From a virus (Duplodnaviria; Caudoviricetes): DNA of 64,000 bases. Of this stretch, positions 32,594-58,210 are shown piece by piece (position 1 is the first letter of the stretch; each line of letters starts with the position of its first letter). The notes beneath the pieces are model-generated. The model made no database searches. It saw nothing but the letters and a program-made list of their open reading frames with translations, and was not told where the DNA came from. The position numbers were made by a program, and so were the translations under genes. The stretch spans positions 69,796-133,795 of IMG/VR virus record IMGVR_UViG_3300020112_000918; one strand, 5' to 3'.

Positions 32594-34852
32594 TTAAGAA
32601 AAACTCTTTACAGTTAATCCAAGTTTAGCTAAGTTCTTTTCCATAGACTTCTTGAAGGCTTCGTCGTAGTCGTCTCCCTTAGGGCTTTCTACAATAAGAC
32701 CTTCTCCCAGATAGTTATTCTCAAAAGGAACATCCAGTTCACGATTATAAATGTACCGAGGAACAGTAAGCTCTTCGTGAACAAGAGTGTATACGTTTTC
32801 TGCACAAACGTCTCCAACGTCCTTTGCGTTGGTTCCCATCATCGACAGCTCCCAGTCATTAGTATCAAGAACATTAACTACCTTACCGATTGTATGATCA
32901 ATCTTTTTACGCCCCTTTTCTGTAGAAGATTCCTGAATACACTTTAAGTTGTTTTTCAAGAAAATATTTCTTCCGGCTTTTACGTTTCCGATGTTAATCA
33001 GAGCTACGTAAGTAAGGTAAACATTTATTTCAGTATCAGCAGAAAGGTTAGCTACATTAAAGTTCTTTTCCTTTAGATAAGCAATAGTTGCGTGAGACTG
33101 GAAATTATCGAATGTAATCTTGAAAAGATTAATAGAACCCTTATCTCTCAGATCTTCAGGGAAAGTTCGGATGGCATCCAAATTGATACGCCCCTTTCCT
33201 GGAGAAATAGCGATAGTAAAATCGTGAACAGCAACTTTTTCATTATTTACTGCATCCCATTCCCAGTGAGACATACCAATACCGAGAACGTCTCCTGTTT
33301 CCGCAAGGTCGAATGAAAGAACTCGAAGAGCTTTTGGTGCACGGTAAAACTCGTAACGTTCCCCTACCTTTATAAAGAACTTATCACGAATCTGATTCCA
33401 GATAAGCTCGGCTGCTGGCTTAGTAGAAGGAGCCATGATATAAGTAGGAATATTCTTAAGCTGCGGAGTAAAGATATCTTCAATAAGCTGACGCTCACGA
33501 ATAAGTTTATCGAGAGAACCACTTGGCCAACCACCTGTGTTCTTAACAGCACGAGTAGTCGATTCCATGTATTCTCGTTTAAGGTCGATTGGAACCCAAA
33601 TAACTTCTTCTTTAGGATAAAGAGCAAGATTGTCTTCGTTGAGAACTTCTGCAGGAGAGGATGCTGATCCTCGGAATACTGGAAACTTTTCGCCAGTTTC
33701 AGCGTAAATCGGATAAAGTTCCCGCACACGCTTTCTGCTCGGATCTCGCTCATACATTTCCCACTGACTTCCTGTGCTGACGAAGTTTTCAGGGTCTTTC
33801 TGAGCCTGCCCCGTAAATATGTATTTATCGATAGGACTGACATCAAGGTCGTTAGGAGAAGAGTCAAGAACCGTTCCGCACAAATACTTATTACCGAAAC
33901 GAGACTTAATACGTTCCTTAGAATCCATGTAAATACGCCAGATATAATCAGTAGAGAACCCACGATCGATAAAGAAAGAAATTTCTGACATAGTTGACTG
34001 AATCATGTTCAAACCGAGCAACTGATGAGGTCCGGAAGCAACAATGTAGTGAATGTCATTAGGGAACTGCAAAACACCGATGCGGGATGCTGTTGTCCAA
34101 CAAATCTTGTCTGGGTATTTTTTCTGATGATTTTCAAGCTGCTCTTCTACTTTTACACGATGGAATTTCGGAGCAGTTGTCAATATCTGAATAAATGGCT
34201 GGAGCAAAAGCTGCTTAGCCTTATCTTGAGAGAACGAAATAAATGCTTGAACTATCGAAGTAGAAGCTGCCAAGCCAAAGTACTTCTTCGGATTGCGCAT
34301 CAAGAACAGGTTAATAGTAACAAACAGGTTGTGCATTGCTGAGATAGTCGAATTGTGTGTAATAAGTCCATTGTTTGTAAAATATAGTCCGTCTTTTGAG
34401 TCTACAGAAATGCAAGAGGTTTCTTCCTGATAAAGAGCTTTTCTTATGCAAAGAATAGTAACTCCTTCATCTTCTGCTGTTAAGAGTTCATCAGAATCTG
34501 AAATCGCAGGGTCTTTTACATAAGCATCGTAGCAGTGTTCATTTTCTGGATAAGAAGTCATCCAAATAAATTTTAGAAAAGGAACTCTTTCCCTCAGCCA
34601 CTCAGTAGTAACGCTTTCCCAGAATAACTGCCCATTAAGTTTTCTAAAAGAAACGACATTTATGTGGTCTTTATGAGTTCTTAGAACTCTTCCATCAGAG
34701 AGAAAAATATTATATACGTCTGTCAAGCCTTGAGGAAAAATAGCTTTTATGGGACGTTTACCTTTAGGAGTTAGAACTTCATCTCCTATAGCCAAGTCCC
34801 CATTACGCTTATAGACAAAACGCTTAGATTCTTTTACGGAAGATATTTTCAT
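32594..34852 (-). CDS. terL: terminase large subunit, C-terminal part, preceded by most of a split intein
   Basis: Intein blocks up to ITHN, then ST completing Walker A; nuclease motifs SFDLAETGD, ITFDNFQS, KDVGD. Confidence 0.88.
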   Translation of the reverse strand: MKISSVKESKRFVYKRNGDLAIGDEVLTPKGKRPIKAIFPQGLTDVYNIFLSDGRVLRTHKDHINVVSFRKLNGQLFWESVTTEWLRERVPFLKFIWMTSYPENEHCYDAYVKDPAISDSDELLTAEDEGVTILCIRKALYQEETSCISVDSKDGLYFTNNGLITHNSTISAMHNLFVTINLFLMRNPKKYFGLAASTSIVQAFISFSQDKAKQLLLQPFIQILTTAPKFHRVKVEEQLENHQKKYPDKICWTTASRIGVLQFPNDIHYIVASGPHQLLGLNMIQSTMSEISFFIDRGFSTDYIWRIYMDSKERIKSRFGNKYLCGTVLDSSPNDLDVSPIDKYIFTGQAQKDPENFVSTGSQWEMYERDPSRKRVRELYPIYAETGEKFPVFRGSASSPAEVLNEDNLALYPKEEVIWVPIDLKREYMESTTRAVKNTGGWPSGSLDKLIRERQLIEDIFTPQLKNIPTYIMAPSTKPAAELIWNQIRDKFFIKVGERYEFYRAPKALRVLSFDLAETGDVLGIGMSHWEWDAVNNEKVAVHDFTIAISPGKGRINLDAIRTFPEDLRDKGSINLFKITFDNFQSHATIAYLKEKNFNVANLSADTEINVYLTYVALINIGNVKAGRNIFLKNNLKCIQESSTEKGRKKIDHTIGKVVNVLDTNDWELSMMGTNAKDVGDVCAENVYTLVHEELTVPRYIYNRELDVPFENNYLGEGLIVESPKGDDYDEAFKKSMEKNLAKLGLTVKSFS

Positions 34853-36171
34853 TTAATCCTCTTGACAGTCCAGCCTACTCTAAATCCTTCAGGGACAGGT
34901 TCATCTTTTCGTATATAAGTGTTTATAGTGCCATTCGTTATACCAATTTTTCCTTTATTTTGAGAAGATTGTCCTTTGTGGGAGTCAGAAAGTTTTTTCT
35001 TATATTCAGGCTGCTGGTATAAGGCTTTCATAGTTTCGCTAGATTTTCGTTTAGCTTCTTGGTTTGGAAGTCTCCCTGCCTGAAAACCTTCTGGACAAAT
35101 TTCACAAAGAATTTCTGTTTCTCCATCTGTAAACCAATGGTATCTATCTAGGTTAGATTCCTTCCACTTCCAAGACTGCCCAGCAACTGTTTTACTAGCA
35201 GAGCCTAGTTCCCAGCCTTCTTTAAGAAATTCTTCTACTTGTTCGATTTTAACACATTTTCTTTCTGAACCTTTATGCATCCACTTAGTTCCTAAGGTAG
35301 AATGAACTACTCTTGTTTTCATAGATTTTCTAAAAATGTCAGAAACATACATCCCTAAAGAGTACCCTGCTTCTAAGTATGAATTAATTTCATTAGGATA
35401 AACATAGATATTCTTTGTCCCCTTATGCATCCACTTCTTACCAGTAGGGTCTGAAAAAACTCTGCCCTTTTTCCAACCAGCTTTTTTGTAAAATTCCCAT
35501 TCATCTATAAAAATCTTTTTAGATTTCTCTCCTTTCTTAGAAACGAAAAACATCTCTTTTTGTAGAGAATTACTTAATTCAAAAGACTCCATAGCTATAT
35601 CCAAATTCGCATAAAATTCTGTATCGCTTTTCAGAGAATCTAAATTATCAAACTCTACTAGACCAGAAGTTCTGTAAGCTGCTAGATAGTTACAGTAAGC
35701 GTATCTTAATTGTCCTTGTTTATGTTGTTCCTTAGCTCTAAGATAGTGAGCCTTAATGTGAAAATACAGGGGCAAAGAAATAATATTCTCTTTTAAATCC
35801 TGCCCTCCTTCACATCTAGGAATTATATGATGTCTATTAATAAAGATTTCGTTTTCTCTATAGAAGTCTTCTGAAAACTGCTTAAAAAAGGAAATCAGTT
35901 CTTCATAGTTCTCAATCTCAAAAGCCTTTTTAAACTCGCTAAAATGGTTTGCCCGATATTTCATCATACATAAATAGGCTATTTCATAAGGAAAGTCTAT
36001 AGTGTCTAATTCCCTATTCCTAATTTCTCTTGCCCTGATTACCTGCCACTCAGAGTTTTCCTGAATAAGAATCTTTTCTTCTGGGCGGAAAATAAGACTT
36101 TCGCAATTTTCGAAATTGAACTCTAAAACGTCTTCTTCATCTACTGCTACGGGTGTAGATACAGGGAGAGC
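34352..36171 (-). mobile_element. split Ala1 (class-3-like) intein with an HNH endonuclease, inserted in the TerL Walker A
   Basis: GIGK|ALPVSTPV ... GDLAIGDEVL ... THKDH ... SCISVDSKDGLY ... ITHN|ST. Confidence 0.85.
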
Positions 36172-36555
36172 TTTTCCAATACCAATAGCGTTAGCAAGAA
36201 CTAGATGACGGTAAGGAGAGTCATAGTTCCAGAACGCTTCAAGAATCTCTCTTGCATGAACGAACAAACTTTCTGCCTGAGGACCGAGCCACTCTTCTGA
36301 AAGAAATTCATGGATTGTTGGTGGCTTAGACTTGTAGTTGATCCTCCAAGAGTCCAAGAGTAAAAGTTCTTTCATATTGCTAGAAAGCATAGGATTATTC
36401 AATATAAGCTGCAAGCCTTTCTGGATCTCAGGGTCGGATAAACGTTGAAAGTCCTGTCTATCAGCGACAGAATCGTCTCCCTGGATCAAGTCTTTTATGA
36501 GAAAAGGATTGTCATTTGGATTTTCATAGTCTGTCTTAGGTACAATTATTTCCAT
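34849..36555 (-). CDS. terL: terminase large subunit N-terminal part + intein N-fragment + HNH endonuclease with NUMOD-like repeats
   Basis: PPTIHEFL...LVLANAIGIGK; RHHIIPRCEGG...NIISL...HIKAH; repeated KWMHKG/WFTDG/ITNG units. Confidence 0.85.
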   Translation of the reverse strand: MEIIVPKTDYENPNDNPFLIKDLIQGDDSVADRQDFQRLSDPEIQKGLQLILNNPMLSSNMKELLLLDSWRINYKSKPPTIHEFLSEEWLGPQAESLFVHAREILEAFWNYDSPYRHLVLANAIGIGKALPVSTPVAVDEEDVLEFNFENCESLIFRPEEKILIQENSEWQVIRAREIRNRELDTIDFPYEIAYLCMMKYRANHFSEFKKAFEIENYEELISFFKQFSEDFYRENEIFINRHHIIPRCEGGQDLKENIISLPLYFHIKAHYLRAKEQHKQGQLRYAYCNYLAAYRTSGLVEFDNLDSLKSDTEFYANLDIAMESFELSNSLQKEMFFVSKKGEKSKKIFIDEWEFYKKAGWKKGRVFSDPTGKKWMHKGTKNIYVYPNEINSYLEAGYSLGMYVSDIFRKSMKTRVVHSTLGTKWMHKGSERKCVKIEQVEEFLKEGWELGSASKTVAGQSWKWKESNLDRYHWFTDGETEILCEICPEGFQAGRLPNQEAKRKSSETMKALYQQPEYKKKLSDSHKGQSSQNKGKIGITNGTINTYIRKDEPVPEGFRVGWTVKRIK

Positions 36556-36571
36556 AAACTAAATAGGAAAA

Positions 36572-36596
36572 CAAAAAAGCCCTCCGAAGAGGGCTT
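36572..36596 (-). terminator. intrinsic terminator
   Basis: AAGCCCTC-TTCG-GAGGGCTT plus T-run. Confidence 0.8.
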
Positions 36597-36605
36597 GCAA
36601 TTTCT

Positions 36606-37523
36606 TTAAAAGTTATTAGTAAATTTTTGTCTACAATAACCTCGTTTGTATTTATGGAATTCGCACAACCAGTGCTCAACATCTAACATAAGAGGATGTG
36701 AAACTAGTAAGATTAAATCCTGGCACCCTTCTTGTTTGCATAAATGTGAAATCTGTTCTCTAGAAATACCTGTAGAGTTTTCTATAGTTTTTAAAATGTA
36801 TTCTGAGTTTTCATTCCAAATTTCTCTAAGCTCTTTAATCAAAGGTACATAGTTTTTAGAACTTACTTTAAGGTCAGGATAGACATCTTTTAATCCTCTA
36901 AAAGCTCCTGGACCGTAGCTTGTCCAAGTTAGTAGGTCTGAAAACTTGTCAGGGTCTGAATAAATCCAGTCACTAACTATGCAGTAAGCTGTAAAATCAC
37001 CTATAGCTGCCTCTTTTGACTTCAAAGCGGAAACTGCAGCTTGCGTACTAGTTATATCTCCTGAAAGGACTTTGCTCCATACGAGTTTTACCTGAGAATA
37101 AATTTTCTGCATTTGATGTAAATCATCTTTTTGTCTTCTGTTTACTATAAAAGACCCTGTAGCTAAATTAAACTTTTTATTTTCTGGGCGAGAATTTTCA
37201 AATAGAAATTGAATAAAGGCATTAGGATTTCCTTTATCTGCTTTTTTCAAAAGTTTTTGAGCTAAAGGGTTGCTCTTTAAGTAAGACAAAAGACTAAAGG
37301 AAGAAGACCACCTAAGAAGTCCGATAAGAGCTTTATTCGACAAATTTAAAGACTGAATAAGAAAATAAGTCTTGTCTAAGCATCTGTGCACGTTACAGAA
37401 CTTGTAAGTTGCTAATACAGGGTCGTCTGTAAAAGGAGCCAGAGTTTTCAAAAGGCTTTTTTTTACAAAAATGCTTTCTCTTTCAGAAACTAAGTCTAAA
37501 AATTTCTTTTCTTCATCTGTCAT
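36606..37523 (-). CDS. alpha-glutamyl/putrescinyl thymine pyrophosphorylase-like (aGPT-Pplase1 / amino acid:DNA transferase)
   Basis: ERESI...PFTDDPVLATYKFCNVHR.LD, IGDFTAY.IVSD, GPGA.RGL, DVEHWLCEF.KY. Confidence 0.82.
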   Translation of the reverse strand: MTDEEKKFLDLVSERESIFVKKSLLKTLAPFTDDPVLATYKFCNVHRCLDKTYFLIQSLNLSNKALIGLLRWSSSFSLLSYLKSNPLAQKLLKKADKGNPNAFIQFLFENSRPENKKFNLATGSFIVNRRQKDDLHQMQKIYSQVKLVWSKVLSGDITSTQAAVSALKSKEAAIGDFTAYCIVSDWIYSDPDKFSDLLTWTSYGPGAFRGLKDVYPDLKVSSKNYVPLIKELREIWNENSEYILKTIENSTGISREQISHLCKQEGCQDLILLVSHPLMLDVEHWLCEFHKYKRGYCRQKFTNNF

Positions 37524-38191
37524 TACATAAAGTCCTTTGTGCTTAAGTACATTTCCGAATAAGCATAAGCCTTCGGATAAGTTTTATACATATACTCTTG
37601 TATCTGTCCAGGTGTAAAATTCGGTTTTACTTTGTTAAAAAGCAAGTTCAAGTCAATCGAAGGTGTTGAAAATTTTTCTTCTGACAAAGCAATAAGTTTA
37701 ATGTACTTACTGAAAGGGTCGTCTTTTCCTTCTACTTCGATTTTCCAACCTGCTGTCATCCAGTTTTTAGCCATGGACTTAGTAAAGGCTACCTGTTCAA
37801 GAAGTTTAAAGTCATAGCTTTCCCAATCATCTCCAAGACCGGAGTAGCTGTCAAAAAGTTCTTTTTCAATTTTGTCCTGTTTAGGAGAAGCTGGAGCAAG
37901 GTCTGCAAAGCAATCATAAAAGTCTGCTGAACAGACGTCAAAGTAGCCTTTAACGTTTTTAGGTAAAGCCCCCTTTGCCACAAGAGCTTTGTACTTCGCT
38001 TCAATTACAGACTTTTCTCCGATTTCAAGAAAGCTGTACCCCAGTGTGTCTTCGAAGCAAGGAATTTTCAAACTCTGAAAAATGTTTGCGTGCAATCCTG
38101 CCATAGCATCCGCAGGAGCCATAGGCTCTCCACCTAAGGTAAAAGGCACATAAAGTCGATATTTTGTTGTTTCTTCTCGCAATATAGTCAT
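37523..38191 (-). CDS. hypothetical protein, possible internal head protein
   Basis: N-terminus MTILREE; AAGGAG SD; CCTATTT upstream. Confidence 0.6.
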   Translation of the reverse strand: MTILREETTKYRLYVPFTLGGEPMAPADAMAGLHANIFQSLKIPCFEDTLGYSFLEIGEKSVIEAKYKALVAKGALPKNVKGYFDVCSADFYDCFADLAPASPKQDKIEKELFDSYSGLGDDWESYDFKLLEQVAFTKSMAKNWMTAGWKIEVEGKDDPFSKYIKLIALSEEKFSTPSIDLNLLFNKVKPNFTPGQIQEYMYKTYPKAYAYSEMYLSTKDFM

Positions 38192-38222
38192 AGAATTCTC
38201 CTTCTAATAAATAGGCTTGGCA

Positions 38223-38858: not shown

Positions 38859-38877
38859 TCTTCCCTCCCCTAAAGGT

Positions 38878-39777: not shown

Positions 39778-39785
39778 ACATTCTC

Positions 39786-40358: not shown

Positions 40359-40360
40359 GA

Positions 40361-41001: not shown

Positions 41002-41488
41002 TTCGTTTTTTATAAATCTTCTGATTAGATGACCCTCTGAGCTTCAAGGAAGAACTGCATAGATCTTTCTGAAAAGGACCATCTATAAGAACATCGGTCA
41101 GCTTAAGAATCTCGGTTATAAAAAGTTTGTCTTTTCTTCTGTGAGTTAATTCCTCAAGCTGGAATCCTGTCCACAAATAGACCTTAGTATCCGGAAGTTT
41201 AAACTTAATATAGGTTAATAAAGAGTGAACCAGAGATATGTTCTGTTCACACATCGGTTCACCCCCTAAAATAGAAAGATTTCTTTTAATTCCATCTTTA
41301 TTCAAGGCTGCCAAAATCTGTTCCTTAAAGTCTGGAGGAAGTTTCTTACCTCCGTTGTAGTCCCAAGTTTGTGGATTATGGCAACCCGGACAACGGAATG
41401 GGCATCCCTGTACCCAGAATGATACAGAGATTCCATCGTCGCTGTCTACAAAATCATTTTCAATAATTCCAGCGTAGCGGTTATTCAT
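40958..41488 (-). CDS. nrdG: anaerobic ribonucleotide reductase activase
   Basis: GCPFRCPGCHNPQTW, LGGEP, DVLIDGPF, RGSSNQ. Confidence 0.95.
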   Translation of the reverse strand: MNNRYAGIIENDFVDSDDGISVSFWVQGCPFRCPGCHNPQTWDYNGGKKLPPDFKEQILAALNKDGIKRNLSILGGEPMCEQNISLVHSLLTYIKFKLPDTKVYLWTGFQLEELTHRRKDKLFITEILKLTDVLIDGPFQKDLCSSSLKLRGSSNQKIYKKRNGEFYDCSMERVRG

Positions 41489-42080
41489 TGTTATATCCTT
41501 CAGTCTTCCACCCCGTCAATTCATCTGAGTGCTTATGACGATCGTTAGACTCCTTACGTTTTCCTTCATTAAAATACTGAAGGAAGGAACCTGTTAAGTA
41601 TCCTGTTACACGACGAAGTCTTTCAATAAATCCTGTAAGGACACGCTTAATCACATTTCCCTTTTCGTCCTTTTCTTCAGTAAACTCTTTTGCTCCGCAG
41701 TTAGGACAAGTATCTCCTTCAATTACTCCTTGATAACCGCAGTTCATACAAGTATCAATAGGAACATTGATAGCAAAATAAGGAATATCGTGAGCCATAG
41801 CGTAGTCAACTATCTGCTGAACAGCTTTTACATTATGGCGAGCATTTTCATCCAGCTCTACATAAGTGATACACCCCGCAGATGAAAAGCCTGTAAGTTT
41901 ACTTTCAATATCGATTTTCTGGAAGGGACTTAGTTCCTTCCAAACAGGAACGTGCATTGAGTTTGTAAAGTAACCTCTTTCTACGAGTTTTCCTTTCTCG
42001 TTACGATAAGCTGTTACGTTCTCAATAAGACCATACTTAGCTACGAACTTTTTGTAAGCTGTGAAACAAAGATTCTCTGC
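41481..42080 (-). CDS. nrdD: NrdD C-terminal fragment, exon 2 (glycyl-radical domain)
   Basis: AENLC, YFTNSMHVPV, CMNC...CPNC, RRVTGYL. Confidence 0.92.
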   Translation of the reverse strand, partial: AENLCFTAYKKFVAKYGLIENVTAYRNEKGKLVERGYFTNSMHVPVWKELSPFQKIDIESKLTGFSSAGCITYVELDENARHNVKAVQQIVDYAMAHDIPYFAINVPIDTCMNCGYQGVIEGDTCPNCGAKEFTEEKDEKGNVIKRVLTGFIERLRRVTGYLTGSFLQYFNEGKRKESNDRHKHSDELTGWKTEGYNNE

Positions 42081-42372
42081 CAAAACTCCACTGATTTTCA
42101 CCAGCAGTCAGACTATATTTTCAACTTCTATTTCTGTCACCAAAATAAAAGTGCCTCTCATTTCCAGCTGTTAAGCTGTACTCTACTCATTTATTCACTC
42201 AAGTCTTTCTCTTGAGCTATACTTTCGATAGTCGTTAGAGACATCCTCAATGAGGACTTCCTACGGGGTTAGCTTGCCTTTCAGTTTAGCCTTTCTTATC
42301 AGATTATTACTCTTCGCCCGTTTAGAGAGGGATTTTCATTTACTGTCACCAGTAAAGCACCCACTAGAATCT
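42081..42372 (-). mobile_element. group I intron (292 nt, no ORF)
   Basis: 5' exon ends ACACCU and pairs with intron GGGUG (U.G); R element CTAACGACTATC; S element AAATATAGTCTGAC; terminal G; splicing restores YYTP|AENLC in frame. Confidence 0.9.
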
Positions 42373-42465
42373 AGGTGTGTAATATACGCCAAAATTTAAT
42401 CGATGTGCGGATTTTTCTCGTAGCTTCTTATAAGCTAAGTCGTACTCCTTCTTTAAGTTCTCCAT
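42373..42465 (-). CDS. nrdD: NrdD C-terminal fragment, exon 1 (31 codons; not in the ORF track)
   Basis: AAGGAGG SD, then MENLKKEYDLAYKKLREKSAHRLNFGVYYTP. Confidence 0.85.
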
Positions 42466-43324
42466 TTAGTATTATCCTCCTTAGAGTTTCTTTTATAGAG
42501 TCTTGATTTGCTAACCAAGAGCTCTCTTTTATCCGAATAAGAAAAATTCCTTTTTCTTCACAGATTTTATCCTTTTCTTTATCTCGTTCTAAAGATTCTG
42601 GCAAATTATGCCAGTAGTCCCCATCATATTCCACTGCTATTTTTAATTCCGGTAAATATAAATCAAGCTCCATCGGAAAAATTGCAGCATGATCTGTGTG
42701 TTTAACAGAAGAGTAAAAAGATTTCACATACTCGTAAACCTCTATTTCCCCTTTAGAAAAATGAAAAGGTTCCACCAAATGACAAGGAGCATCTACTCCA
42801 TATCGTTGTTTTAAAGTTTTCATGGCTTTTTCCCTTACTGTCTTATTCTGAAAAGGATTTTCTACTCCATACTTCTCTAGATTTACTTGTTTAATCTTTT
42901 CTTTAATAGCACTGCTTTGAAAAGGATTCTCCACACCGTACTTCTTTAAGCAAGTTTCCTTAAATTTCTGAATTCCCCTTTCACTTAAAGCTCCATTTGC
43001 CACACCATATCTCTTCAAATTTGTGCTCTCATTTTTTAATCTCACAGAAGAATCTAGTTGAGTACATCGACAAGAACAGTGTAAATTATAGCCTTTTCTT
43101 GCATTAATAAAAGACTTTATAGGTCCTTTACAGATCGGACACTCAGGATAGTCTTTTAAATTGAATTTTAACCAATAAACTTTTTCTGCTAAAGTTGCTG
43201 GATTTTCAGGAAATTCTTTTTCTAAAGCCTTGATTAAATTCTCTTTACAAGATAAGCGTGCCTGCCACCCAAACGTAGAGGACTCAAATATACTAAGAAT
43301 ATCAGTTTTCACAGTGTTTTCCAT
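42428..43324 (-). CDS. free-standing homing endonuclease (Vsr/DUF559-like PD-(D/E)XK domain, KYGVENP repeats)
   Basis: CPIC...CSCRC, about four KYGVENPFQ-type repeats, ELDLYLPELKIAVEYDGDYWH. Confidence 0.85.
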   Translation of the reverse strand: MENTVKTDILSIFESSTFGWQARLSCKENLIKALEKEFPENPATLAEKVYWLKFNLKDYPECPICKGPIKSFINARKGYNLHCSCRCTQLDSSVRLKNESTNLKRYGVANGALSERGIQKFKETCLKKYGVENPFQSSAIKEKIKQVNLEKYGVENPFQNKTVREKAMKTLKQRYGVDAPCHLVEPFHFSKGEIEVYEYVKSFYSSVKHTDHAAIFPMELDLYLPELKIAVEYDGDYWHNLPESLERDKEKDKICEEKGIFLIRIKESSWLANQDSIKETLRRIILNGELKEGVRLSL

Positions 43325-43340: not shown

Positions 43341-46300
43341 TTAAATTCTCTGCTGGGGTACAGAGTTTACATAATTCTGAATCTCAGTAAGTTCATTATC
43401 TGATAGTGGTCTCCGATACTTTTCTTCTAAAGAAAGACGCATTTCTTTTATAATGGCTTCCTTCGTCGGCTCAGCATAATGAACTTGTTCTTTGTAAGCA
43501 TCACACTTTTCTTTAAAAAGAGTTTCTATACGAATAGCAAGATTCATACCCTTTTCTTCTGTATGGTCACATCCTATAAGGATCTGAAGACACTCTGCTA
43601 AGCCTAACTGTCCAATAGCTAAAGTTCCGTGCTTAAGGGCTGAACGAATTCCTTCTTCTGGAACATAACCTTTCATAGTATTGTTCTGATACATAAACTT
43701 TGCAGAGTTTGGACTCTGAGAAGCAATCCACTCAAAGCGTTCAATAAGAGCGTCTTTTGTTTCGTCTATGTATTTTTCAAGCAGCTTCATAAACACGTCT
43801 ACTACAGCATCTGGATCAGATTTACTCTTCTTCTTAGCAAGCATAGCTACTGTTGGAAGAATGATGGTCTGCGGAGCAATATTTCCTCTTCCATCTCTCT
43901 GCATTGCTGAGCAAAGATAACTATCAGGAACGTCGCCTGTTTCCAGAATCTTTGTAAGCAAATCCAAAAAGTATTCTTTAGAAAAGTTGATATCGTAACC
44001 GTTATTTGTACGGCAATTATGCATAATGATATCAGAGCCAATGAAAGTTCCTGTCTCGGTTCCAATATCATAAGAGTCTACTGGCTCCCAGTGCCAGCTA
44101 ATATCCTCTACTTTTAGACGCAAACCATCTGCTCTGGATAGGAAATCTCCTACTTTTAGGTCTGCTGCTTTAGTAAAAGTCTCTCCCGTCCAAAGAGGGT
44201 GGTCTTCTGTACAAGAAAGACAATAGTGTTTTCCTTGTTCTTCGTAATAGATATGCATCATAAGCGGAGTGTTCAGCTTATCATTTTTGAAAACGTGGCG
44301 TACTTTAACCCATCGATTTTCTCTATCTAAAACTTTTATGTCTTCAGAAGATAAGTCAATTAAGTCCTGAGCAACTGAAGTATCGTGCTGAAATTGAGGA
44401 CGTTTATAAACTTTCTGTCCCTTAACAGTAATAGTCTTAAAGTATTTCTGAGAAGTGCCCTTAAAATTTACGTTAGGAATAGTTTCAATAAACCGTTTTT
44501 CTTCTGCTTCATAGTCTTCTGTATAAAGAAGAACTTCGAATATGTAGTGGGATAAATCTGAGTCACCGAAAGAAATTCCTGCGTCTAAACTTCCTTTAGT
44601 GCGAATATTTCCCCTATGCTCTGTAAGTCTTCGATTTACGTCTTTGCTACTTCCGATATAAGTTACATCTTCAGGAAGATAAGTAATTGCGTAGACTCCT
44701 GCTCCTACTTTTATCCCAGATTTGTGCTGTACCTTTTTATTTCCTGGAATTCTTAACTCTTCTTTATTGAAGAAAACCTTACAAGGTCGTGCTCTTAAAA
44801 CTCCAGTTTTACAGTATTCGTAAAAATCTTTTATAGAGATATCGTAAATACCTTGAGGAAGTTTTACGTACAGATGTTCTTTTCCGTCCAAAGCTCCCAT
44901 TGTAGAAAAGTCTTCTGTTGGCTGAACCTTTTCAGTAACAATAAGTTCCTCATTGTTTACTTCTACGTTAATCTTTTGTCCGATATCAGGATGCTTTTTG
45001 AAAATCTTTACAAGACCTTCGTAGTTTTCTGGAGAAAGGGTTCTGATAACTTCTTTCTTCAAAGCACGATCTTTTTTAATTCCCTCTGACTGAACTGACC
45101 AGTTACAGTTTGCATAGTTCGGATAAAGACGACGAACTGTAGAGTTAAGAGCCTTTTGATAAAATTCGTAATTAGGAGTTCCTTCCTTACCGTTCACATA
45201 TTTATCATACTGAAAAATCTGACAAGGGAAAATAGAAGTTCTTCCATATTTTCCTATACCAAGAATTGATGCACGATAAAAAGTCTCATTAAGAAGTTTT
45301 CCCTCTGGAGAAGTGTTTTTACCAAAGTTAATAGAAGAGAAAGGCAACTGATCCCCACTTCTTGAGAGTAGAGTGTTCAGATTGTGGTAAAGACCTTCGG
45401 CAGCCTGTTTTGTTTCAATGATAGTATCCAGCAAAGCACTCTGATACCATTTGCGACTAATTTTCTGAATTGTTCTACTTCCGAAATAGAAGTCGTCAAA
45501 AGACACATTCCAGTTTTTGAGGAATACCTCTTTATTATCCTGGAGCCACTCTTCAAAGGCATTTCTTACAATGCCGAAATCATCGACATAATCGTCAAGC
45601 ACAAGCTGTAAAAGGTTGAGACTTTTGAAGCTCTTTGAATCTTTAAGGGAAGCAATAATAAAATGCTTCATAAACGATTTTCTTACATAAATCTCAAGAG
45701 TGAAGTCCAGATGAGTGCAAGATACGCCCCCAAACTGCTGTAAAGACTGTGTCTGAACAAGAACTTGAATAAGCTGTTCTGCAGAAGAAATACTTCCAGC
45801 TGGACGGCAGTCTGAATTCTTTACAGTGAATCCGTTTGCTAAAGACTGATCTACAGGAAGACTTAAACAGTTATGTTCTCCAACACACCACTCAGACAAG
45901 TCATGCTCATAGGAAATATTGTCTCTGTGATTTTTTGCTGCCTTAGGTGATATGTAGTAATTCAGAGCAATTTCTTTATTAAGGGAGGAAGCTGCTTCAT
46001 TGTTTCTTCCCCCAAAAGATTCCTCATCTACATTCGCATTCTGGCGTTCATTTTTCTTCGCATCCAGCTTTTCACGATAGTTAGTAATCTCGTCTGTTGC
46101 TCCAAGACGTTCCCGATCTCTACGAGAACGGAATTCAATGTAGCTGCGAGCTACGTCATGCAGTTCTGCTCCCATAAGAGCGTTTTCCACGATTTTGTGA
46201 ATACCTGCAATTTTTATAGGCTTTGTGTCAGACCTTCTGTCTTCTAAACCAAGCCAAACCAATTTCATTACTCTCGCAACGTCTTCGTCGGAAAGTTTAC

Positions 46301-46397
46301 TCTCTGGAACTGTAGAACTTGCTGCTTTCTTGATTGCATTTACAATCTTCGCTTCATCAAAATCCACAATTCGTCCATCTCTTTTCTTTATAGTCAT
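43341..46397 (-). CDS. nrdD: NrdD N-terminal fragment (ATP cone) containing an intein
   Basis: IKKRDGRIVDFD ATP cone, HNCL, QFGG, PFSSINFG, TSIFP, MG|CRT, GRGNI, GQLGLAECL. Confidence 0.93.
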   Translation of the reverse strand: MTIKKRDGRIVDFDEAKIVNAIKKAASSTVPESKLSDEDVARVMKLVWLGLEDRRSDTKPIKIAGIHKIVENALMGAELHDVARSYIEFRSRRDRERLGATDEITNYREKLDAKKNERQNANVDEESFGGRNNEAASSLNKEIALNYYISPKAAKNHRDNISYEHDLSEWCVGEHNCLSLPVDQSLANGFTVKNSDCRPAGSISSAEQLIQVLVQTQSLQQFGGVSCTHLDFTLEIYVRKSFMKHFIIASLKDSKSFKSLNLLQLVLDDYVDDFGIVRNAFEEWLQDNKEVFLKNWNVSFDDFYFGSRTIQKISRKWYQSALLDTIIETKQAAEGLYHNLNTLLSRSGDQLPFSSINFGKNTSPEGKLLNETFYRASILGIGKYGRTSIFPCQIFQYDKYVNGKEGTPNYEFYQKALNSTVRRLYPNYANCNWSVQSEGIKKDRALKKEVIRTLSPENYEGLVKIFKKHPDIGQKINVEVNNEELIVTEKVQPTEDFSTMGALDGKEHLYVKLPQGIYDISIKDFYEYCKTGVLRARPCKVFFNKEELRIPGNKKVQHKSGIKVGAGVYAITYLPEDVTYIGSSKDVNRRLTEHRGNIRTKGSLDAGISFGDSDLSHYIFEVLLYTEDYEAEEKRFIETIPNVNFKGTSQKYFKTITVKGQKVYKRPQFQHDTSVAQDLIDLSSEDIKVLDRENRWVKVRHVFKNDKLNTPLMMHIYYEEQGKHYCLSCTEDHPLWTGETFTKAADLKVGDFLSRADGLRLKVEDISWHWEPVDSYDIGTETGTFIGSDIIMHNCRTNNGYDINFSKEYFLDLLTKILETGDVPDSYLCSAMQRDGRGNIAPQTIILPTVAMLAKKKSKSDPDAVVDVFMKLLEKYIDETKDALIERFEWIASQSPNSAKFMYQNNTMKGYVPEEGIRSALKHGTLAIGQLGLAECLQILIGCDHTEEKGMNLAIRIETLFKEKCDAYKEQVHYAEPTKEAIIKEMRLSLEEKYRRPLSDNELTEIQNYVNSVPQQRI
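44016..44894 (-). mobile_element. Ala1 intein with a GIY-YIG endonuclease (293 aa)
   Basis: MG|ALDGKE...GVYAITY...YIGSSKDVNRRLTEH...CTEDHPL...SYDIGT...MHN|CRT. Confidence 0.9.
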
Positions 46398-52480: not shown

Positions 52481-52489
52481 GGAGAACTT

Positions 52490-52873
52490 ATGAAACTGAA
52501 TTTTAGATGTTTCCGGATTGAAGGAGTTTCCAGAGGTAACTTTTTCAACGTAGTTTGCAAAAATGTTACACCCCTCTTGGAAATAGCAGAGATGGCTGTA
52601 GTTTTCGGAACTCAGGATGCAGAACCTACTACAGAATCTGTTTGGGAATTTGCAGGAAATAAATTTCGCTATGATGCAAGCAATGACCTTACAAAGCTGG
52701 AAGAACTTTACAAAGAGGACTTCACAAAGTTCTGCCACCCTGTAGACATTAAAAAGGTGTCTCCCGTTAATTGCTTTTCTTGCGCAGAATACGGTAATGC
52801 AAAAATCCATAAAAAGATTATGTGTGACTGGTTGACCGTTTGTTCTAACGGTTCTCATTTCAAAAGAATATAG
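52490..52873 (+). CDS. hypothetical protein
   Basis: AAGGAG SD; Cys-rich C-terminus. Confidence 0.6.
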   Translation: MKLNFRCFRIEGVSRGNFFNVVCKNVTPLLEIAEMAVVFGTQDAEPTTESVWEFAGNKFRYDASNDLTKLEELYKEDFTKFCHPVDIKKVSPVNCFSCAEYGNAKIHKKIMCDWLTVCSNGSHFKRI

Positions 52874-52882
52874 GAGAAAAAT

Positions 52883-53275
52883 ATGAATTTTTATGAAGTT
52901 TTAGAAAAGACTGACTCAGCAGATTTTGACGTGTGTGATAACGTGTATGACATTCTCTACACTTTCTGCTGGGACAAAGAAATGTTTAGCACGGTTGAAG
53001 AATACAATACTTTCTGCAAGGAGCTTTTTAAGAGAACGGAAGTAGAAAAATTTATTTCTTCTAACCACGTATGTCTTAAGCTCACAGATATGATTAAGGC
53101 TAACGTAGGCTTGTTCAAACAATACATGATAGACCACTGGCGTTTTCAGTATGATGACGAATCAGATTTTGAATACGAATGGTGCAAGGAACTTCTTTTA
53201 TTTACCTGTGGTTACGGCTCTGAAGGACAGTATCGTTCTCTCAGGGAAGAAGTTCTTGAAAAGATAAGTGTTTAG
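52883..53275 (+). CDS. hypothetical protein
   Basis: AGGAG SD. Confidence 0.6.
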   Translation: MNFYEVLEKTDSADFDVCDNVYDILYTFCWDKEMFSTVEEYNTFCKELFKRTEVEKFISSNHVCLKLTDMIKANVGLFKQYMIDHWRFQYDDESDFEYEWCKELLLFTCGYGSEGQYRSLREEVLEKISV

Positions 53276-53370
53276 ATGGGAGAAGGGAGAATGAAAGAAG
53301 TAACAGTCTGGGATAATAGACCACGTTGGATGTGGTGCTGGGAACTCTCCCGAGTTTGAGGAGTAAAAAG

Positions 53371-53571
53371 ATGATATTTCCTGAAGAACCTACATGCAGA
53401 TGTGGAATCTATTATGAAGAACAAATTACCTATAGAGCAATAGATGACCTGCCTCCTGCTATGTTATATCCTCCACGATGCACTAAATGCGGAGGGTTAA
53501 TTACCCCGTATCAAGCAGAGGAGAGGGCAAAGCACATGGGTAGAGCTTTGGAGATTTTGAATGTTAGATGA
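53371..53571 (+). CDS. small Zn-ribbon protein
   Basis: CRCG...CTKCG; ATG after GAGGAG. Confidence 0.5.
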   Translation: MIFPEEPTCRCGIYYEEQITYRAIDDLPPAMLYPPRCTKCGGLITPYQAEERAKHMGRALEILNVR

Positions 53572-53962
53572 AGAAAAAATAAAGAAAGCAAGAGGCATAT
53601 TATGTCACAATTGCAGATGGAATGAATGTGATAATGATTCTTGCCCTACGCTACTAGAAACAGTAAAAGCAATAGAACTAGGACTTGCAGAAGGAAGAAA
53701 GGAAGGGTACGAGCAAGGCTATGAAGCCTGCAGACACTATGCTCACGACTATTATAAACCTAAGTGGCACGAAATTAAGTGTTGCTCTCAAGACTTACCG
53801 TCAAGAAGTAAAGACAATTATTTACACTCTGTTATTGTATCAAATGAATACGGAGAGCCGATTTATTACAATTACAATACTGATGAATGGTGCGATATGG
53901 AAGGTGACGTAGTAAGTGATAGCTACAAGTATTGGTGCGAACTTCCAACATATAAGGAGTAA
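53561..53962 (+). CDS. hypothetical protein (DUF551-like C-terminus)
   Basis: KWH....DLP...YWCELP. Confidence 0.55.
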   Translation: MLDEEKIKKARGILCHNCRWNECDNDSCPTLLETVKAIELGLAEGRKEGYEQGYEACRHYAHDYYKPKWHEIKCCSQDLPSRSKDNYLHSVIVSNEYGEPIYYNYNTDEWCDMEGDVVSDSYKYWCELPTYKE

Positions 53963-54108
53963 GAGAAAAATATGAAAACAATACACATCAAAAATGCAGA
54001 TGACTTTTTCATTACAGTTTCCTAAATTAAATAAATGTTTGGAAAAATTAGTGTGAAAGAAGAATTTAAGGGTCGTTGAAAAACGACCTTTTTACTTGGA
54101 GGATAACT

Positions 54109-54315
54109 ATGGCTAAAGCAAAGACTGTTGCTAAGATTGTTTATGTAACGAATAAAGAATATACAATCTCATTTTCTATTGGAGGGAATGAAGTTCTTGA
54201 TAAAGAAGCCCTTAAACAAACTCTTGCTAAAAAAGAATTAGAACTGCGAAATAATTATGGAAAGAAATTAAAAAGCCTTGAAGTAATTTATACAGAAGGA
54301 GTTGAGAATGTTTAA
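54109..54315 (+). CDS. hypothetical protein
   Basis: GGAGG SD before MAKAKT; terminator-like hairpin at 54068-54093 upstream. Confidence 0.55.
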   Translation: MAKAKTVAKIVYVTNKEYTISFSIGGNEVLDKEALKQTLAKKELELRNNYGKKLKSLEVIYTEGVENV

Positions 54316-55216
54316 GCAGACTTTTTTAACTACAAGAAAGCGCGGACCAAAAATTCTTGTATTAAGTGGCATTCACGGAGATGAAACTCAGGCAGTAAAA
54401 ACTGTTCTGAAATTCGCAGAAGAAATCAGTAAATCTGTTAATTCTCCTGCTTCTGCTTTGAGCAAGGTAACTTCTTATACTTTCTTACACGGAGTAAACG
54501 ACTATGGTCTTTTAACTCATCAGCGAGAAAATACTTTTCAAAAAGAAACTGTTCCTTCTCAAAATTTAAATCGTCTTTTTACTCCTACTTACCAGACTCC
54601 TCAAGAAGTAAAAGATTTGATTACTCCGGAAATTGAAGCAGCAGATATTGTGATCGACGTGCACAATTCTCCTGTTTGTAAAAATTGCTTTTTAGTGGAC
54701 TATGATTCATACGCTGAAAAATGTCTTTCTCTTACAAAGAAAACAGCTTTGACTCCGTTGCTCAGGGTTGCTAATGTAAGTGCAGGAACTGTAAAAAGCA
54801 AGGCTCTTTCTCTTGGGAAGATTGGTTTTACAGTAGAATTAAATGGAATGGGATTCTTAGGAAGTGACCCAGATCGAGGAGCAACTTTGCTTCAAGACTT
54901 CTTAATTTCTATTATTGATTCCTATGAAAAACCCGTAACTCCTCTAGACAGACTAGAAGATTATCTTTCTGTTTTCTTATTTTCTAAGATATCTGGAATC
55001 TTGGAGTGGAATTGTTTAGACCCTTTTATGAAAAAATATAGTAAAGGAGAAATAATTTGTACAGTGACTTCTTTAGACGGAAAAGAAGTACAAGAAATTA
55101 AAGCTCCTTTTTCAGGTGGATTTGTTTACGATATCCCCGATTCTCTTTACATAAGTAAAGGTGAGCCGTTTATCGAATACGCTAAGAACCCACAAGAACT
55201 TTTTAATAAAGTCTAA
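54308..55216 (+). CDS. succinylglutamate desuccinylase/aspartoacylase-family (M14) metallohydrolase
   Basis: GIHGDE, NLNR.F, IDVH, FTVEL, C-terminal IKAPFSG. Confidence 0.85.
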   Translation: MFKQTFLTTRKRGPKILVLSGIHGDETQAVKTVLKFAEEISKSVNSPASALSKVTSYTFLHGVNDYGLLTHQRENTFQKETVPSQNLNRLFTPTYQTPQEVKDLITPEIEAADIVIDVHNSPVCKNCFLVDYDSYAEKCLSLTKKTALTPLLRVANVSAGTVKSKALSLGKIGFTVELNGMGFLGSDPDRGATLLQDFLISIIDSYEKPVTPLDRLEDYLSVFLFSKISGILEWNCLDPFMKKYSKGEIICTVTSLDGKEVQEIKAPFSGGFVYDIPDSLYISKGEPFIEYAKNPQELFNKV

Positions 55217-55248
55217 CTTTTAGAGTTCTGTTCGGAATTATAAAAGAC

Positions 55249-57432
55249 ATGAGTGATGAATTTGATGATTTCTTTGGGGAAGAAGCCCCTAAAGTAAAAA
55301 ATGCAGAAGTAAAGGAAATCGTAGAGAATCCGATTCTATTTGATGAGCCTGACGCTAATGTTAATGTTCTTTTAGCAGACAAGCTGTCAGACCATCAGAT
55401 AGCTTACCTTGTAAAACTTGCTCACCAGAGCGACGCAAAGGTTCGAGTTATCTACTGTTTTCCTTTTGTAGCTAATGAAAAACACATGGTTAAGGGTATG
55501 GCACGTTTCTTCGTAGAAAATGTTCGTTCAGACCTTAAAAACTTTATTATGCGCAATCATCCTGTAGTGACTGTGGGACGTGCGATTTATGCAACCACCT
55601 TTGATACAGATGTTCAGATTGACGCATTTTATGATTCTATTTTTAATCATACGTATTTTTATTCTCCTTTTGTAGACAATCGTGTTTATCCGATTGACAA
55701 TGCTTTCCGTATTTGTGGATTCGGTCAGCCTGACCCAAAGTCTGGGGAGCCTATCTACTTTTGGGACCGTTTTGAAACAGCTTTTGCTAGGGAACAGTTT
55801 AAACGTGCAGCAAAAGCCGGAAACTGTTCTCTCATGCGTAAACGAAGTATTTCTATTAAAGAAATTGAAAACTGCAATGAATGGCTTCTGGCTCATTCTG
55901 AAAATATTCCTGAGCATGAGCTTTGGGTAGCTGTCGACTCAGAAACAGGTGGTTTCAAGAAACTGGAAAATCGTATTGGAAATATTTCTCTTGCGTTTAA
56001 CGGGTATGAAGCTCTTTACTTGGACTGGAAAAATATCAACCCTAGAATTTTTTCGAAGTTCTTAAATGCTCATAAACTTATTTTCGCAAACGGTAAATTC
56101 GATATTCTGTTCTTCGCTTATCACGGTTGTGACTTACACAAGCTCGATTGGGATACAATGGTTGCTGGACACTTCTTAAATGAGATGCGTTCTAATTCAT
56201 TGAAGACCCACGCTTTCTGGTATACCAATTACGGTGGATATGATCTTGACCTTGAACGTTATAAGTGGAAGTATCCAGGAATGATTGACTACACCAAGAT
56301 TCCTAAGTCTATCCGTATGCCTTACGCAGGAATGGATGCTGCGATTACTTATCAGGTTTGGCAGCGTGAAAAAGAAGACATGATGAAGGAGCCAGAGCTT
56401 TATGAATACTACATTGAGACAGCTGTTCCTATGATTAACGTGTTTGCTAAAGCAGAGTATAAGGGCTTCTGCATTAACTGGGCTGCTATTTCTAAAACAG
56501 GTGACGAGCTTCAGGAAAAACTTAAGGTATGTAAAAAAGCCGTTAGGGATGCTTACAATGAACCTGACCTTGATGTAAACTCAAAACAAGCCGTAGGCGA
56601 TATGCTTCAGGCTCACGGATATCCTGCAATCGATATCGGAAAAACAGGACATTACAAAGTGTCTAAAGTTGAACTTAATGAGTGGAAAAAGCTCGGATAC
56701 AAAGAAGTTGATACTTTGCTTGAACTGTCTAAATGGACTGCTCTTTGGCAGACCTTCATCGGAGAAGATGCTTCTTCAGAAGAAGATCTTACTTCCGAAA
56801 ACGAAGCTGAAGAGTCAGATTCATTCTTTAATGAAAGCTCGACTACTGCTGACAAGTTTAATAATGACTCAACAGGCTTGTGGAAATACAAAGCTCCTGA
56901 CGGATGCGTTCATACAACTTTCCATCCGTTCATGGCTCAGTCTCACAGACATCGCTCAAGTGACCCTAACCTTCAGAATATTCCTAAAAAGAATTATGAA
57001 GCAACCCGTCTTGTGCGAACTGCCTACACAACTCCGGACACAATTCCTTGTAAGCCTGAAGAAGCAGATAAGATTAATCTTCTTTGTAAGGACAGTGGCT
57101 ACGTTTCACTCTACTCAGGAGAGATGATCAATATCGGTGGAAATGTTTGCATGGGAAGGGATATTCCGTCGCTCGACCTTGACTCCCTCGGAATTAGAGC
57201 TGAATATGAGAAGTTTTATAATTCCGACTTCGCAAAAGGAACAGAAAGCTATCTTGAGATTCAGGACTCAGTACGGGGCAAGCTCATACTCCCTATCTAC
57301 GAAGATTCAGCAAAGAAGAAGTTTGTTGAAATCTTCGTTAAGCGTAATGGTTCTGTTCAGAAAGTTTTCACAAAAGACTTACAGGAAGGAGACGAGCTTG
57401 TAGAAACTGATGCAGTTAAAACAGCTTGCTAG
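55249..57432 (+). CDS. polA: family A DNA polymerase, part 1 (3'-5' exonuclease and thumb)
   Basis: VDSET, NGKFD, DTMV, YAGMDA, SSDPNLQNIP. Confidence 0.9.
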   Translation: MSDEFDDFFGEEAPKVKNAEVKEIVENPILFDEPDANVNVLLADKLSDHQIAYLVKLAHQSDAKVRVIYCFPFVANEKHMVKGMARFFVENVRSDLKNFIMRNHPVVTVGRAIYATTFDTDVQIDAFYDSIFNHTYFYSPFVDNRVYPIDNAFRICGFGQPDPKSGEPIYFWDRFETAFAREQFKRAAKAGNCSLMRKRSISIKEIENCNEWLLAHSENIPEHELWVAVDSETGGFKKLENRIGNISLAFNGYEALYLDWKNINPRIFSKFLNAHKLIFANGKFDILFFAYHGCDLHKLDWDTMVAGHFLNEMRSNSLKTHAFWYTNYGGYDLDLERYKWKYPGMIDYTKIPKSIRMPYAGMDAAITYQVWQREKEDMMKEPELYEYYIETAVPMINVFAKAEYKGFCINWAAISKTGDELQEKLKVCKKAVRDAYNEPDLDVNSKQAVGDMLQAHGYPAIDIGKTGHYKVSKVELNEWKKLGYKEVDTLLELSKWTALWQTFIGEDASSEEDLTSENEAEESDSFFNESSTTADKFNNDSTGLWKYKAPDGCVHTTFHPFMAQSHRHRSSDPNLQNIPKKNYEATRLVRTAYTTPDTIPCKPEEADKINLLCKDSGYVSLYSGEMINIGGNVCMGRDIPSLDLDSLGIRAEYEKFYNSDFAKGTESYLEIQDSVRGKLILPIYEDSAKKKFVEIFVKRNGSVQKVFTKDLQEGDELVETDAVKTAC

Positions 57433-57442
57433 GGAGAAATCG

Positions 57443-58210
57443 ATGATAACATCTATAAAAACAATTACAACCATGCCAGCATACAACATTCTTGAGTGTG
57501 ATGGTGAAAACTTACAGGCTCATATTGCTGCGTCTATGTCGCTTGATCCTGCTCTGTGTAAATTGTTCTTGGGTGGAGGAGACTTTCACTCAAATAATGC
57601 GTATTCTATTATGGCTAAGTATCAGTTGTTTACTCCGTTCGAAGTAACTTTCGAAGACGGCAGTAAAGAAGAAATAATGGAGTGGAAGTCGTTTGACTTG
57701 CCTCGTGGAAAACACATAGCCATAAAAGACATCCAGGAAGGAGATGAAATACACGGTAAAAAAGTTTCTTCTATTAAGTTCCTTCCTGCCCGTAAAATCT
57801 CTTACGAAGAATATTATGCTGATGCCAAGCAAGGTCGTCTAAAAGAACTGCGAACAACGGCTAAACTTTGTTTCGCAAGAGGAACAGAAATTTTTACAAC
57901 AAAAGGTTGGCTTCCTATTGAAACAATAGCCGAAAACTCTATAAAAGATTTTGGTCTTTTGTACGAGGGAGACTTAAAAGTCATAGGAAGAGATGGAAAG
58001 CCAAAAGAAATTTATGGCACGATTAATAATAATCCGTCTCCTATGCTGGAATTTGAACTAGAGGACGGAACTTTACTAAAAGTAACGGAGGATCACGAGC
58101 TTTTAGTAAAACGGGATGGAAAGGAAATAAGAATTCTTGCAAAAGACGCTCAAGAAGATGACGACATCCTTGATTTTGAGCATCCTAAAATAAAACCTTC
58201 TGTATTTTAA
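57443..58210 (+). CDS. polA: family A DNA polymerase, part 2 (motif A, DFH, start of motif B) + N-intein
   Basis: ILECDGENLQAHIAASMSLDPAL, GGDFHS, RTTAKL|CFARGT; AGGGAG SD before ATG 57443. Confidence 0.88.
   Translation: MITSIKTITTMPAYNILECDGENLQAHIAASMSLDPALCKLFLGGGDFHSNNAYSIMAKYQLFTPFEVTFEDGSKEEIMEWKSFDLPRGKHIAIKDIQEGDEIHGKKVSSIKFLPARKISYEEYYADAKQGRLKELRTTAKLCFARGTEIFTTKGWLPIETIAENSIKDFGLLYEGDLKVIGRDGKPKEIYGTINNNPSPMLEFELEDGTLLKVTEDHELLVKRDGKEIRILAKDAQEDDDILDFEHPKIKPSVF

Follow-up and report, generated by a model that had tools for sequence, protein, structure and literature searches.

Candidate splicing-dead half-Hint modules in the fragmented polymerase and terminase genes of an uncultivated phage

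How might a phage keep two essential enzymes at work when the genes that encode them lie in pieces? The question is raised by the final 64 kb (hereafter the window) of a 133.8-kb uncultivated virus record, IMGVR_UViG_3300020112_000918, in which the DNA polymerase PolA is encoded by three open reading frames (ORFs) on the plus strand (55249-57432, 57443-58210 and 58320-59144) and the terminase TerL by two on the minus strand (34849-36555 and 32594-34852). Three copies of a small beta-rich module lie within these genes: module (a) is intact inside PolA part 2, module (b) is split across PolA parts 1 and 2, and module (c) is split across the two halves of TerL. We checked their coordinates and sequences directly and found them to be as an earlier, sequence-only reading of the window had given them. 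Our best explanation, in which we place moderate confidence as a whole, takes all three modules as catalytically dead descendants of the central Hint (intein) fold, extending from the block B hairpin to the first strand of the C-intein. The case is built on how the sequences are laid out, on the fold predicted for (a) and (b), on their conservation, on differences between relatives and on the pattern of charge; binding, splicing and evolutionary order are what we infer from them.

Anatomy, fold and kinship of the modules

Module (a), the intact half-Hint, occupies PolA2 residues 64-116 (57632..57790, plus strand) in the fingers, between motifs A and B, and is modelled with a predicted local distance difference test score (pLDDT) of 66-90. 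Insertion (b) has an N part (57037..57429, plus strand; PolA1 residues 597-727), which is absent from PolA profiles and kept in five relatives, and a C part (57443..57475, plus strand), MITSIKTITTM, a strand of 11 residues with which PolA part 2 begins and which aligns to the start of the C fragment (IntC) of a true split intein farther along the same gene. Module (c) is likewise composed of an acidic N part with four predicted strands (36022..36132, minus strand; TerL-N residues 142-178) and a basic strand, MKISSVKES, at the start of TerL-C (34826..34852, minus strand), which also aligns to the start of the PolA IntC. Alignment to the PolA intein places the break of both split copies at the canonical intein split site, between block N4 and the first C strand, as had been proposed from the sequence. 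The size of about 50 residues then given for the module does not hold for insertion (b), which amounts to 131+11 residues, has conserved Cys residues in its N part and ends that part, after the half-Hint strands (PolA1 residues 663-718; 57235-57402, plus strand), in a variable tail. None of the three modules possesses a position-1 nucleophile or Ala1, the block B TxxH, blocks F and G or a terminal Asn followed by a nucleophile; the claim that they are non-catalytic, made on the lack of Cys1, TxxH and a terminal HN, thus holds at the level of sequence.

For modelling, the tail of PolA1 and the head of PolA2 were joined as an artificial read-through fusion of 262 residues, with TGCT read as one four-letter step, and folded by AlphaFold2 (AF2) from a seven-row alignment that included the relatives' pieces (mean pLDDT 57.5; 67-78 in the core of (b)). 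An unbiased fold search (VIA) of 48,161 solved chains returned nothing but Hint domains at ranks 1-22 (Z 7.1-4.0), always over the same sub-region, for (a) and (b) independently. Module (a) matched residues 41-105 of the gp41-1 intein (Z 7.1, rmsd 2.5 Å over 59 residues, 24% identity), and also residues 58-111 of the Cat intein and 45-119 of Mch DnaB-1; sequence identity to the gp41-1 and Cat inteins was 24-26% over 54-60 residues. Re-comparison of Foldseek matches added residues 45-114 of the Msm class-3 DnaB intein (Z 7.1) and 52-114 of Npu DnaE (Z 5.2). For (b), model residues 76-153, which include the MITSIK strand, matched residues 73-138 of the Pho PolII mini-intein (Z 6.9), with further matches to KlbA (Z 5.4), Prp8 (Z 5.0) and Hedgehog (Z 4.7). 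In Npu DnaE numbering the segment covered runs from beta7 to beta12, that is, from block B to the first C-intein strand, and for (a) and (b) these fold alignments bear out the assignment that the sequence-only reading had made. In the Foldseek comparison that it had called for, the best matches were nearly all inteins, Hedgehog or BIL domains, although none reached E <= 0.001 in BFVD or PDB.

Kinship can also be read from the sequences, compared singly by Smith-Waterman z against shuffled controls and as family profiles by hhalign. Singly, (b) scored 8.2 against the N fragment of the PolA intein and 6.0 against (a); against the same N fragment (a) scored 4.7 and (c) 2.9, which is marginal for a single sequence. 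As profiles, (b) and (c) matched the PolA intein at 95% (P 4e-8) and 93% (P 3e-7), and (a) matched (b) at about 50% (P 1.6e-4). When the N parts were joined in silico to their C strands, the alignments extended through those strands, and P improved slightly, to 5.6e-9 for (b) and 9e-8 for (c), the probability for (c) being 93-94% over the two comparisons. The two genuine inteins of the phage gave no significant match to each other in the same test. Across the whole genome, the best non-self matches of an intein hidden Markov model (HMM) were (b), the head of TerL-C, (c) and (a), and an N-terminal motif of the I-x-x-I-K type opens only two of 177 ORFs, PolA3 and TerL-C. Among the 177 ORFs the N-terminal strand motif is confined to the two breaks. 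Genome-wide HMM scans revealed no fourth copy of the module, and scans of viral and metagenome sequences found near relatives only. One recurrent weak match turned out to be a GroES-like gene; a pair of GroES-like and GroEL-like genes lies at genome C1:20526-22529, upstream of the window.

Several results weigh against so definite an identity. Pfam Hint and intein models match none of (a), (b) or (c), and find only the N fragment of the true PolA intein, weakly. Among 1.84 billion representatives the profile of (b) recovers only its own family, without a single intein, and it gives no significant match to PDB sequences; a search of the ESM Atlas gave sub-threshold leads only. A Z of about 7 is middling by the tool's own scale, and MITSIK is modelled as a strand (144-152) at a pLDDT of only 33-47, in an artificial fusion of low mean confidence. 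Module (c) has no direct match to (a) or (b) and no structural support, so that its place here is one of profile similarity: in the TerL-N model its region forms four strands, with pLDDT values of 44-61, and when that model was used for a fold search the helical and HNH part filled the result. The silence of the Pfam Hint models and the lack of an intein among the matches of the (b) profile would suit a convergent resemblance, in which (a), (b) and (c) were generic small beta-hairpin or SH3-like inserts and the motifs KD-x-Q-E-G-D-E and I-x-x-I-K chance matches; the GroES-like protein, too, weakly matches K-D-L-x-x-G-D, and the models reach at most Z 7.1 at moderate or low confidence. Convergence would nevertheless have to account for 22 consecutive Hint domains at the head of 48,161 chains, all at one sub-region, for the identity to the gp41-1 and Cat inteins, and for hhalign P values of 1e-7 to 6e-9 in comparison with an intein of the same gene, and we consider it improbable.

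The break between PolA parts 1 and 2

The host portion of PolA part 1 (residues 1-596; 55249..57036, plus strand) holds the N-terminal domain, the 3'-5' exonuclease, the thumb and the start of the palm, and is matched by Pfam DNA_pol_A_exo1 and DNA_pol_A. Matches of PolA1 to phage PolA by tblastn stop near residue 597. The match to PHROG 17 ends at PolA1 residue 596 (profile position 1003) and restarts at PolA2 residue 12 (position 1004); since these profile positions flank it, insertion (b) is exactly PolA1 597-727 plus PolA2 1-11. Its place in the enzyme is just upstream of the motif A strand, five to six residues away. The first subdomain of the insertion (PolA1 residues 597-662; 57037-57234) is beta-rich and 67-83% conserved. 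No convincing fold match was found for the first 65 residues of (b), the best being a weak one (Z 3.8), confined to this non-Hint N-terminal subdomain, with residues 475-525 of T4 topoisomerase II chain 8yo3_C. We take that stretch to include the insertion at the gp39/gp60 split site, on an assumed residue numbering.

Read directly, the junction (57430..57445, plus strand) comprises a TAG stop, the Shine-Dalgarno site AGGGAG, six bases and the ATG of part 2. Because it has its own stop, ribosome-binding site and start, the break is a genuine two-cistron layout. The same stop, AGGGAG and ATG recur in the relatives L001, L003, L004 and P0001, and PolA part 1 is about 720 residues long with the same end point in all four independent relatives (57-89% identity). 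Among proteins of 399-1273 residues no fused PolA1-PolA2 form was found, only split forms. The break is old and is fixed in all relatives found. No nuclease is present at it in the window or in L001, L003 or L004. In L004 an unrelated ORF of 129 residues with hydrophobic segments (2390-2779), matching neither Pfam nor PHROG, sits exactly in the break.

Could insertion (b) be an active, non-canonical split intein that splices PolA1 to PolA2? The conserved Cys residues of its N part and a break at the canonical split site would accord with such an activity. Against this stands a C part of only 11 residues that lacks blocks F and G as well as a terminal Asn followed by a nucleophile, a block B without Thr or His, and the Pro-Ala that follows the insertion; on these grounds we hold active splicing to be very improbable. 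Splicing of (b) and programmed recoding at the break were both rejected on the anatomy of the junction and on the relatives.

What the insertion has retained is constraint. With synonymous sites saturated, pN among relatives was 0.11-0.38 in (b), 0.04-0.16 in its C strand and 0.29-0.40 in (a). Identity was 48-88% for (b), 51-58% for (a), which is kept in four of four relatives, and 71-94% for the catalytic core, and the MITSIK strand, at 67-92%, is among the best-conserved parts. To judge from these comparisons, (a) and (b) are under purifying selection, which is looser on (a) than on the catalytic core. Insertion (b) is best read, from its model and its position, as a split-intein fossil near the active site, now serving, or at least persisting, as a non-covalent joint between PolA1 and PolA2. 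In the sequence of events that we propose, (a) and (b) would be fossils of old PolA inteins that lost splicing and kept the frame, (a) remaining as an intact loop domain in the fingers and (b) being already split at the canonical site. PolA would since then have consisted of two chains, PolA1 with 131 inserted residues and PolA2 with an 11-residue strand, and that strand would complete the small sheet and tether the chains non-covalently.

PolA2 and PolA3, by comparison, would be joined by the true split intein. Its N fragment, with Cys1 and a TEDH block B, lies in motif B (57869..58207, plus strand) and is matched by Pfam Intein_splicing and Hint_2, both weakly; its C fragment of 37 residues (58320..58430, plus strand) has Cys at +1 and is followed by PolA part 3 to 59144. 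This intein ends in Pro-Asn and not in His-Asn. Among relatives the intein is polymorphic, being absent from L004 (2790-3926), a contiguous mini-intein in L001 (8197-9771), where parts 2 and 3 are fused, and split in L003 and the window, L003 having a three-piece PolA like that of the window. In the tail of its N fragment the split versions carry a charge of -8 to -10, the contiguous one a charge of 0.

The terminase element

The N-extein of TerL (residues 1-128; 36172..36555, minus strand) ends in the Walker A sequence GIGK and is collinear with the intact TerL of relative L005. It is followed by intein block N1 (36133..36171, minus strand), about 10-13 residues beginning with Ala1, in which A-x-P-x-S-x-x-V is conserved in six family members; by the N part of (c); and, in frame with the intein N fragment, by a helical linker, an HNH nuclease and NUMOD-like repeats (34852..36021, minus strand; pLDDT 78-93). 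The HNH motif lies at 35737-35832, and the region matches the homing endonucleases of PHROG 655 (E 7e-6) and, weakly, Pfam HNH, so nuclease activity is a prediction from sequence. Beyond the C strand of (c) comes the catalytic body of the intein (TerL-C residues 10-167; 34352..34825, minus strand), with block N2, block B (RTHKDH), block F Cys147, THN and Ser at +1, and then the C-extein (32594..34351, minus strand), which starts STIS and is 93% identical to the intact TerL of relatives L005 and L006. In L005, whose exteins are 93% identical, an intact TerL of 713 residues reads G-K-S-T-I-S across the site, and the rejoined GIGK-STIS junction equals that of the intact relative. The insert is absent from L005 and L006. 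Because so close a relative has an intact gene, the whole insert is a recent mobile acquisition.

Within TerL the ATG of TerL-C overlaps the TGA stop of TerL-N (ATGA) behind an AAGAGGA site, and on this ground the break is again a genuine two-cistron layout. It recurs in loci L009, L010, L012 and L014, and the protein clusters P0006-P0010 are N halves of equal length. At 40-92% identity, five protein clusters and L014 share this N-half architecture, namely extein, Ala1 block N1, acidic beta segment, helical linker, HNH and NUMOD-like repeats, and the overlapping C half follows wherever the contig is long enough (L009, L010, L012/L013 and L014). A search for longer forms found no contiguous version of the TerL-element protein, which is weak evidence. 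The possibility that the breaks in both genes are assembly or sequencing artefacts, as single-base frameshifts would be, had been named as what could undo the sequence-only reading. Such errors, in whose favour nothing was found, are hardly conceivable here, with a Shine-Dalgarno site and an ATG at each break and the same layouts in independent assemblies at 57-92% identity. The TerL of the related phage L014 (2386-6463) comes as three pieces. The N1/HNH element is again found at the first of its breaks; at the second lies a class-3-like intein, split canonically, with MPIKIKSIKY at the start of the C fragment.

By phmmer, TerL-C residues 16-65 match residues 19-68 of gp41-1 as well as class-3 DnaB inteins, and the block F Cys and THN have their counterparts in Mch DnaB-1; the body was also aligned among four family members. 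Set against gp41-1 and the DnaB inteins, TerL-C starts at about intein position 10. From the class-3 W-C-T triplet (Trp B12, Cys F4, Thr G5), the block F Cys147 and the Thr before HN are found, together with Ala1, and the block B Trp was not identified. Judged by these alignments, among them those to the Mch and Msm DnaB inteins, the TerL intein is class-3-like, a catalytic Hint lacking block N1 only, and split at an S1-like site. This catalytic Hint includes neither module (c) nor the leader of nine residues on TerL-C, which come in addition to it. In every family member the N part of (c) bears a net charge of -5 to -10 and the leader one of +4 to +5, the latter value being shared by all four relatives. 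As (c) lies inside a class-3-like and recently inserted intein that is predicted to be splicing-competent, TerL is probably still spliced and rejoined covalently, and (c) would probably at most add affinity to an intein with a catalytic N fragment of about ten residues.

The mechanism that we envisage starts from a class-3-like intein (Ala1, block F Cys, THN and Ser) that would have been cut after about ten residues by a cassette made up of a dead half-Hint of acidic charge, the HNH nuclease in frame, a stop with a restart, and a strand of basic charge. The two oppositely charged pieces of (c) would capture each other as the halves of canonical split inteins do. Capture by (c) would lend affinity to a very short N fragment (IntN), and the intein would then splice TerL to GIGK-STIS.

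Joint or fossil, and the place among known split genes

A joining role is not a necessary property of the module. Module (a) exists without one, and because it adjoins no gene break the module is not intrinsically a clasp. The charges of (b), -1 to -5 on one side of the break and +1 to +3 on the other, complement each other only weakly, and the tails of the split NrdA of Aeromonas phage Aeh1 are not needed for one fragment to bind the other, only for higher-order assembly (PMC3045599). All of this tells against the proposed joint. The alternative is that of Hint-derived fossils with no part in assembly, PolA associating through its native palm interface and TerL through the catalytic intein alone. 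The modules would then persist from the difficulty of precise deletion, or for another role such as DNA binding for the HNH nuclease. In favour of fossils, module (a) lies at no break; modules (a) and (b) diverge more quickly than the catalytic core does; an endonuclease ORF cuts NrdD in this phage with no such module there; Aeh1 tails are dispensable for heterodimer formation (PMC3045599); and engineered split inteins of the S1 type function with an IntN of about 11 residues (PMC11766414). Fossils without function, however, would hardly be expected to keep pN far below pS in (b) and its strand, to count that strand of 11 residues among the best-conserved parts, to retain opposite charges in (c) across members only 40% identical, or to show, in both genes, a break that coincides with the module's canonical split point. 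We regard an absence of any assembly role as unlikely.

The sequence-only reading knew of no description of such a system, which overstates its novelty, as the Aeh1 tails (PMC3045599), the T4 bracket (PMC11461880) and the MobA cassettes (10.1101/2022.08.31.505936) precede it. In Aeh1, Crona et al. 2010 found that extensions derived from mobE are essential for the split NrdA, and proposed a degenerate split intein with electrostatic pairing as the origin of the tails (PMC3045599). As in NrdA-a/mobE/NrdA-b, an essential phage enzyme is here in fragments that part at the active site, unsplit homologs do not have the extensions, and oppositely charged extensions come from a mobile endonuclease element with no splicing. 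Unlike Aeh1, where no fold was assigned and where the tails promote dimerisation of heterodimers and not the pairing of fragments, the extensions here are predicted to be Hint-like, the PolA break is now without an endonuclease, and the TerL copy lies inside a predicted working intein. Two marks of assembly tails can be compared directly: a homing endonuclease at the break is found for (c), as the in-frame HNH, and not for (b), and extensions absent from unsplit homologs are found for (b) and the TerL insert.

The insertion of T4 topoisomerase II gp39/gp60, which is split by MobA, has been solved and named an assembly bracket (PMC11461880), and MobA cassettes always carry C- and N-terminal extensions (10.1101/2022.08.31.505936). 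There too, the last part of one chain and the first part of the next together make up an insertion, of about 70 residues and brought by an HNH cassette, and fused 'hit and run' forms keep the insertion, as module (a) does here. Unlike the present modules, the T4 insertion is not described as Hint, and no translational bypass occurs in our phage.

With canonical split inteins such as Npu DnaE and gp41-1 (PMC2677866), the modules share the fold segment, the break between N4 and the first C strand, an acidic N side, a basic C side and an IntC-like I-x-x-I-K start; what sets (a), (b) and (c) apart is the loss of blocks A, F and G and of the block B Thr/His, with which splicing would be lost. In canonical split inteins and fractured genes (PMC2677866) the nuclease is free-standing, whereas that of TerL is in frame. 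S1-like breaks are known for terminase inteins from Dassa et al. 2009 (PMC2677866) and from GOS-TerL and AceL-TerL (PMC11766414). As in GOS-TerL, AceL-TerL and Cat (PMC2677866, PMC11766414), the IntN of the TerL element is block N1 and a long IntC holds all other blocks; GOS-TerL and AceL-TerL share the host gene as well, and TerL-C residue 16 aligns to gp41-1 residue 19. Unlike those atypical TerL inteins, the present one is class-3-like (Ala1, block F Cys, Ser at +1) and not class 1, a dead half-Hint and an HNH module of 390 residues are added to its IntN, and its IntC has an additional basic leader strand. The new elements are the Hint identity predicted for the extensions, the presence of three module states in one phage, and a copy with an in-frame HNH nested in an atypically split class-3-like intein.

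A further gene of the window, NrdD, is also interrupted. Its large ORF of 1018 residues (43341-46397, minus strand) contains a contiguous intein, whose first residue, behind T-M-G, is Ala and whose terminal HN precedes a Cys. A GIY-YIG domain (residues 567-636) comes after about 30 intein residues, at an atypical and not the canonical endonuclease site, and the Hint body lies at about 700-800. The gene is also cut before the glycyl-radical domain by a nuclease-like ORF of 298 residues with DUF7487 and an MTES_1575 restriction endonuclease (REase) domain (41481-43324, minus strand). No Hint-like module was seen at this glycyl-radical break, where the MKISGV of the C piece resembles the strand motif only superficially.

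It is tempting to go further and to see in the three modules one class of selfish cassette, a homing endonuclease housed in a splicing-dead split half-Hint that cuts an essential gene and itself supplies the non-covalent joint. Module (b) would then be a cassette that has lost its nuclease, (a) one that has re-fused, and (c) one that is still live, housed within a class-3 intein at its S1 loop and giving a ten-residue IntN the capture affinity of a canonical split intein. We put this forward tentatively, as a doubtful possibility.

If the half-Hint is indeed a joint, phage assembly tails would acquire a structural identity and an origin in dead split inteins, an origin that Crona et al. 2010 raised and never showed. 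Assembly tails of this kind would let phages tolerate essential genes fractured by endonucleases. The TerL layout would amount to a design found in nature, a very short IntN being boosted by a capture module that is itself non-catalytic, and as such might interest engineers of atypical split inteins for protein labelling. For annotation a caution follows if the reading is true: three-piece polymerases and two-piece terminases such as these would be functional genes and not pseudogenes.

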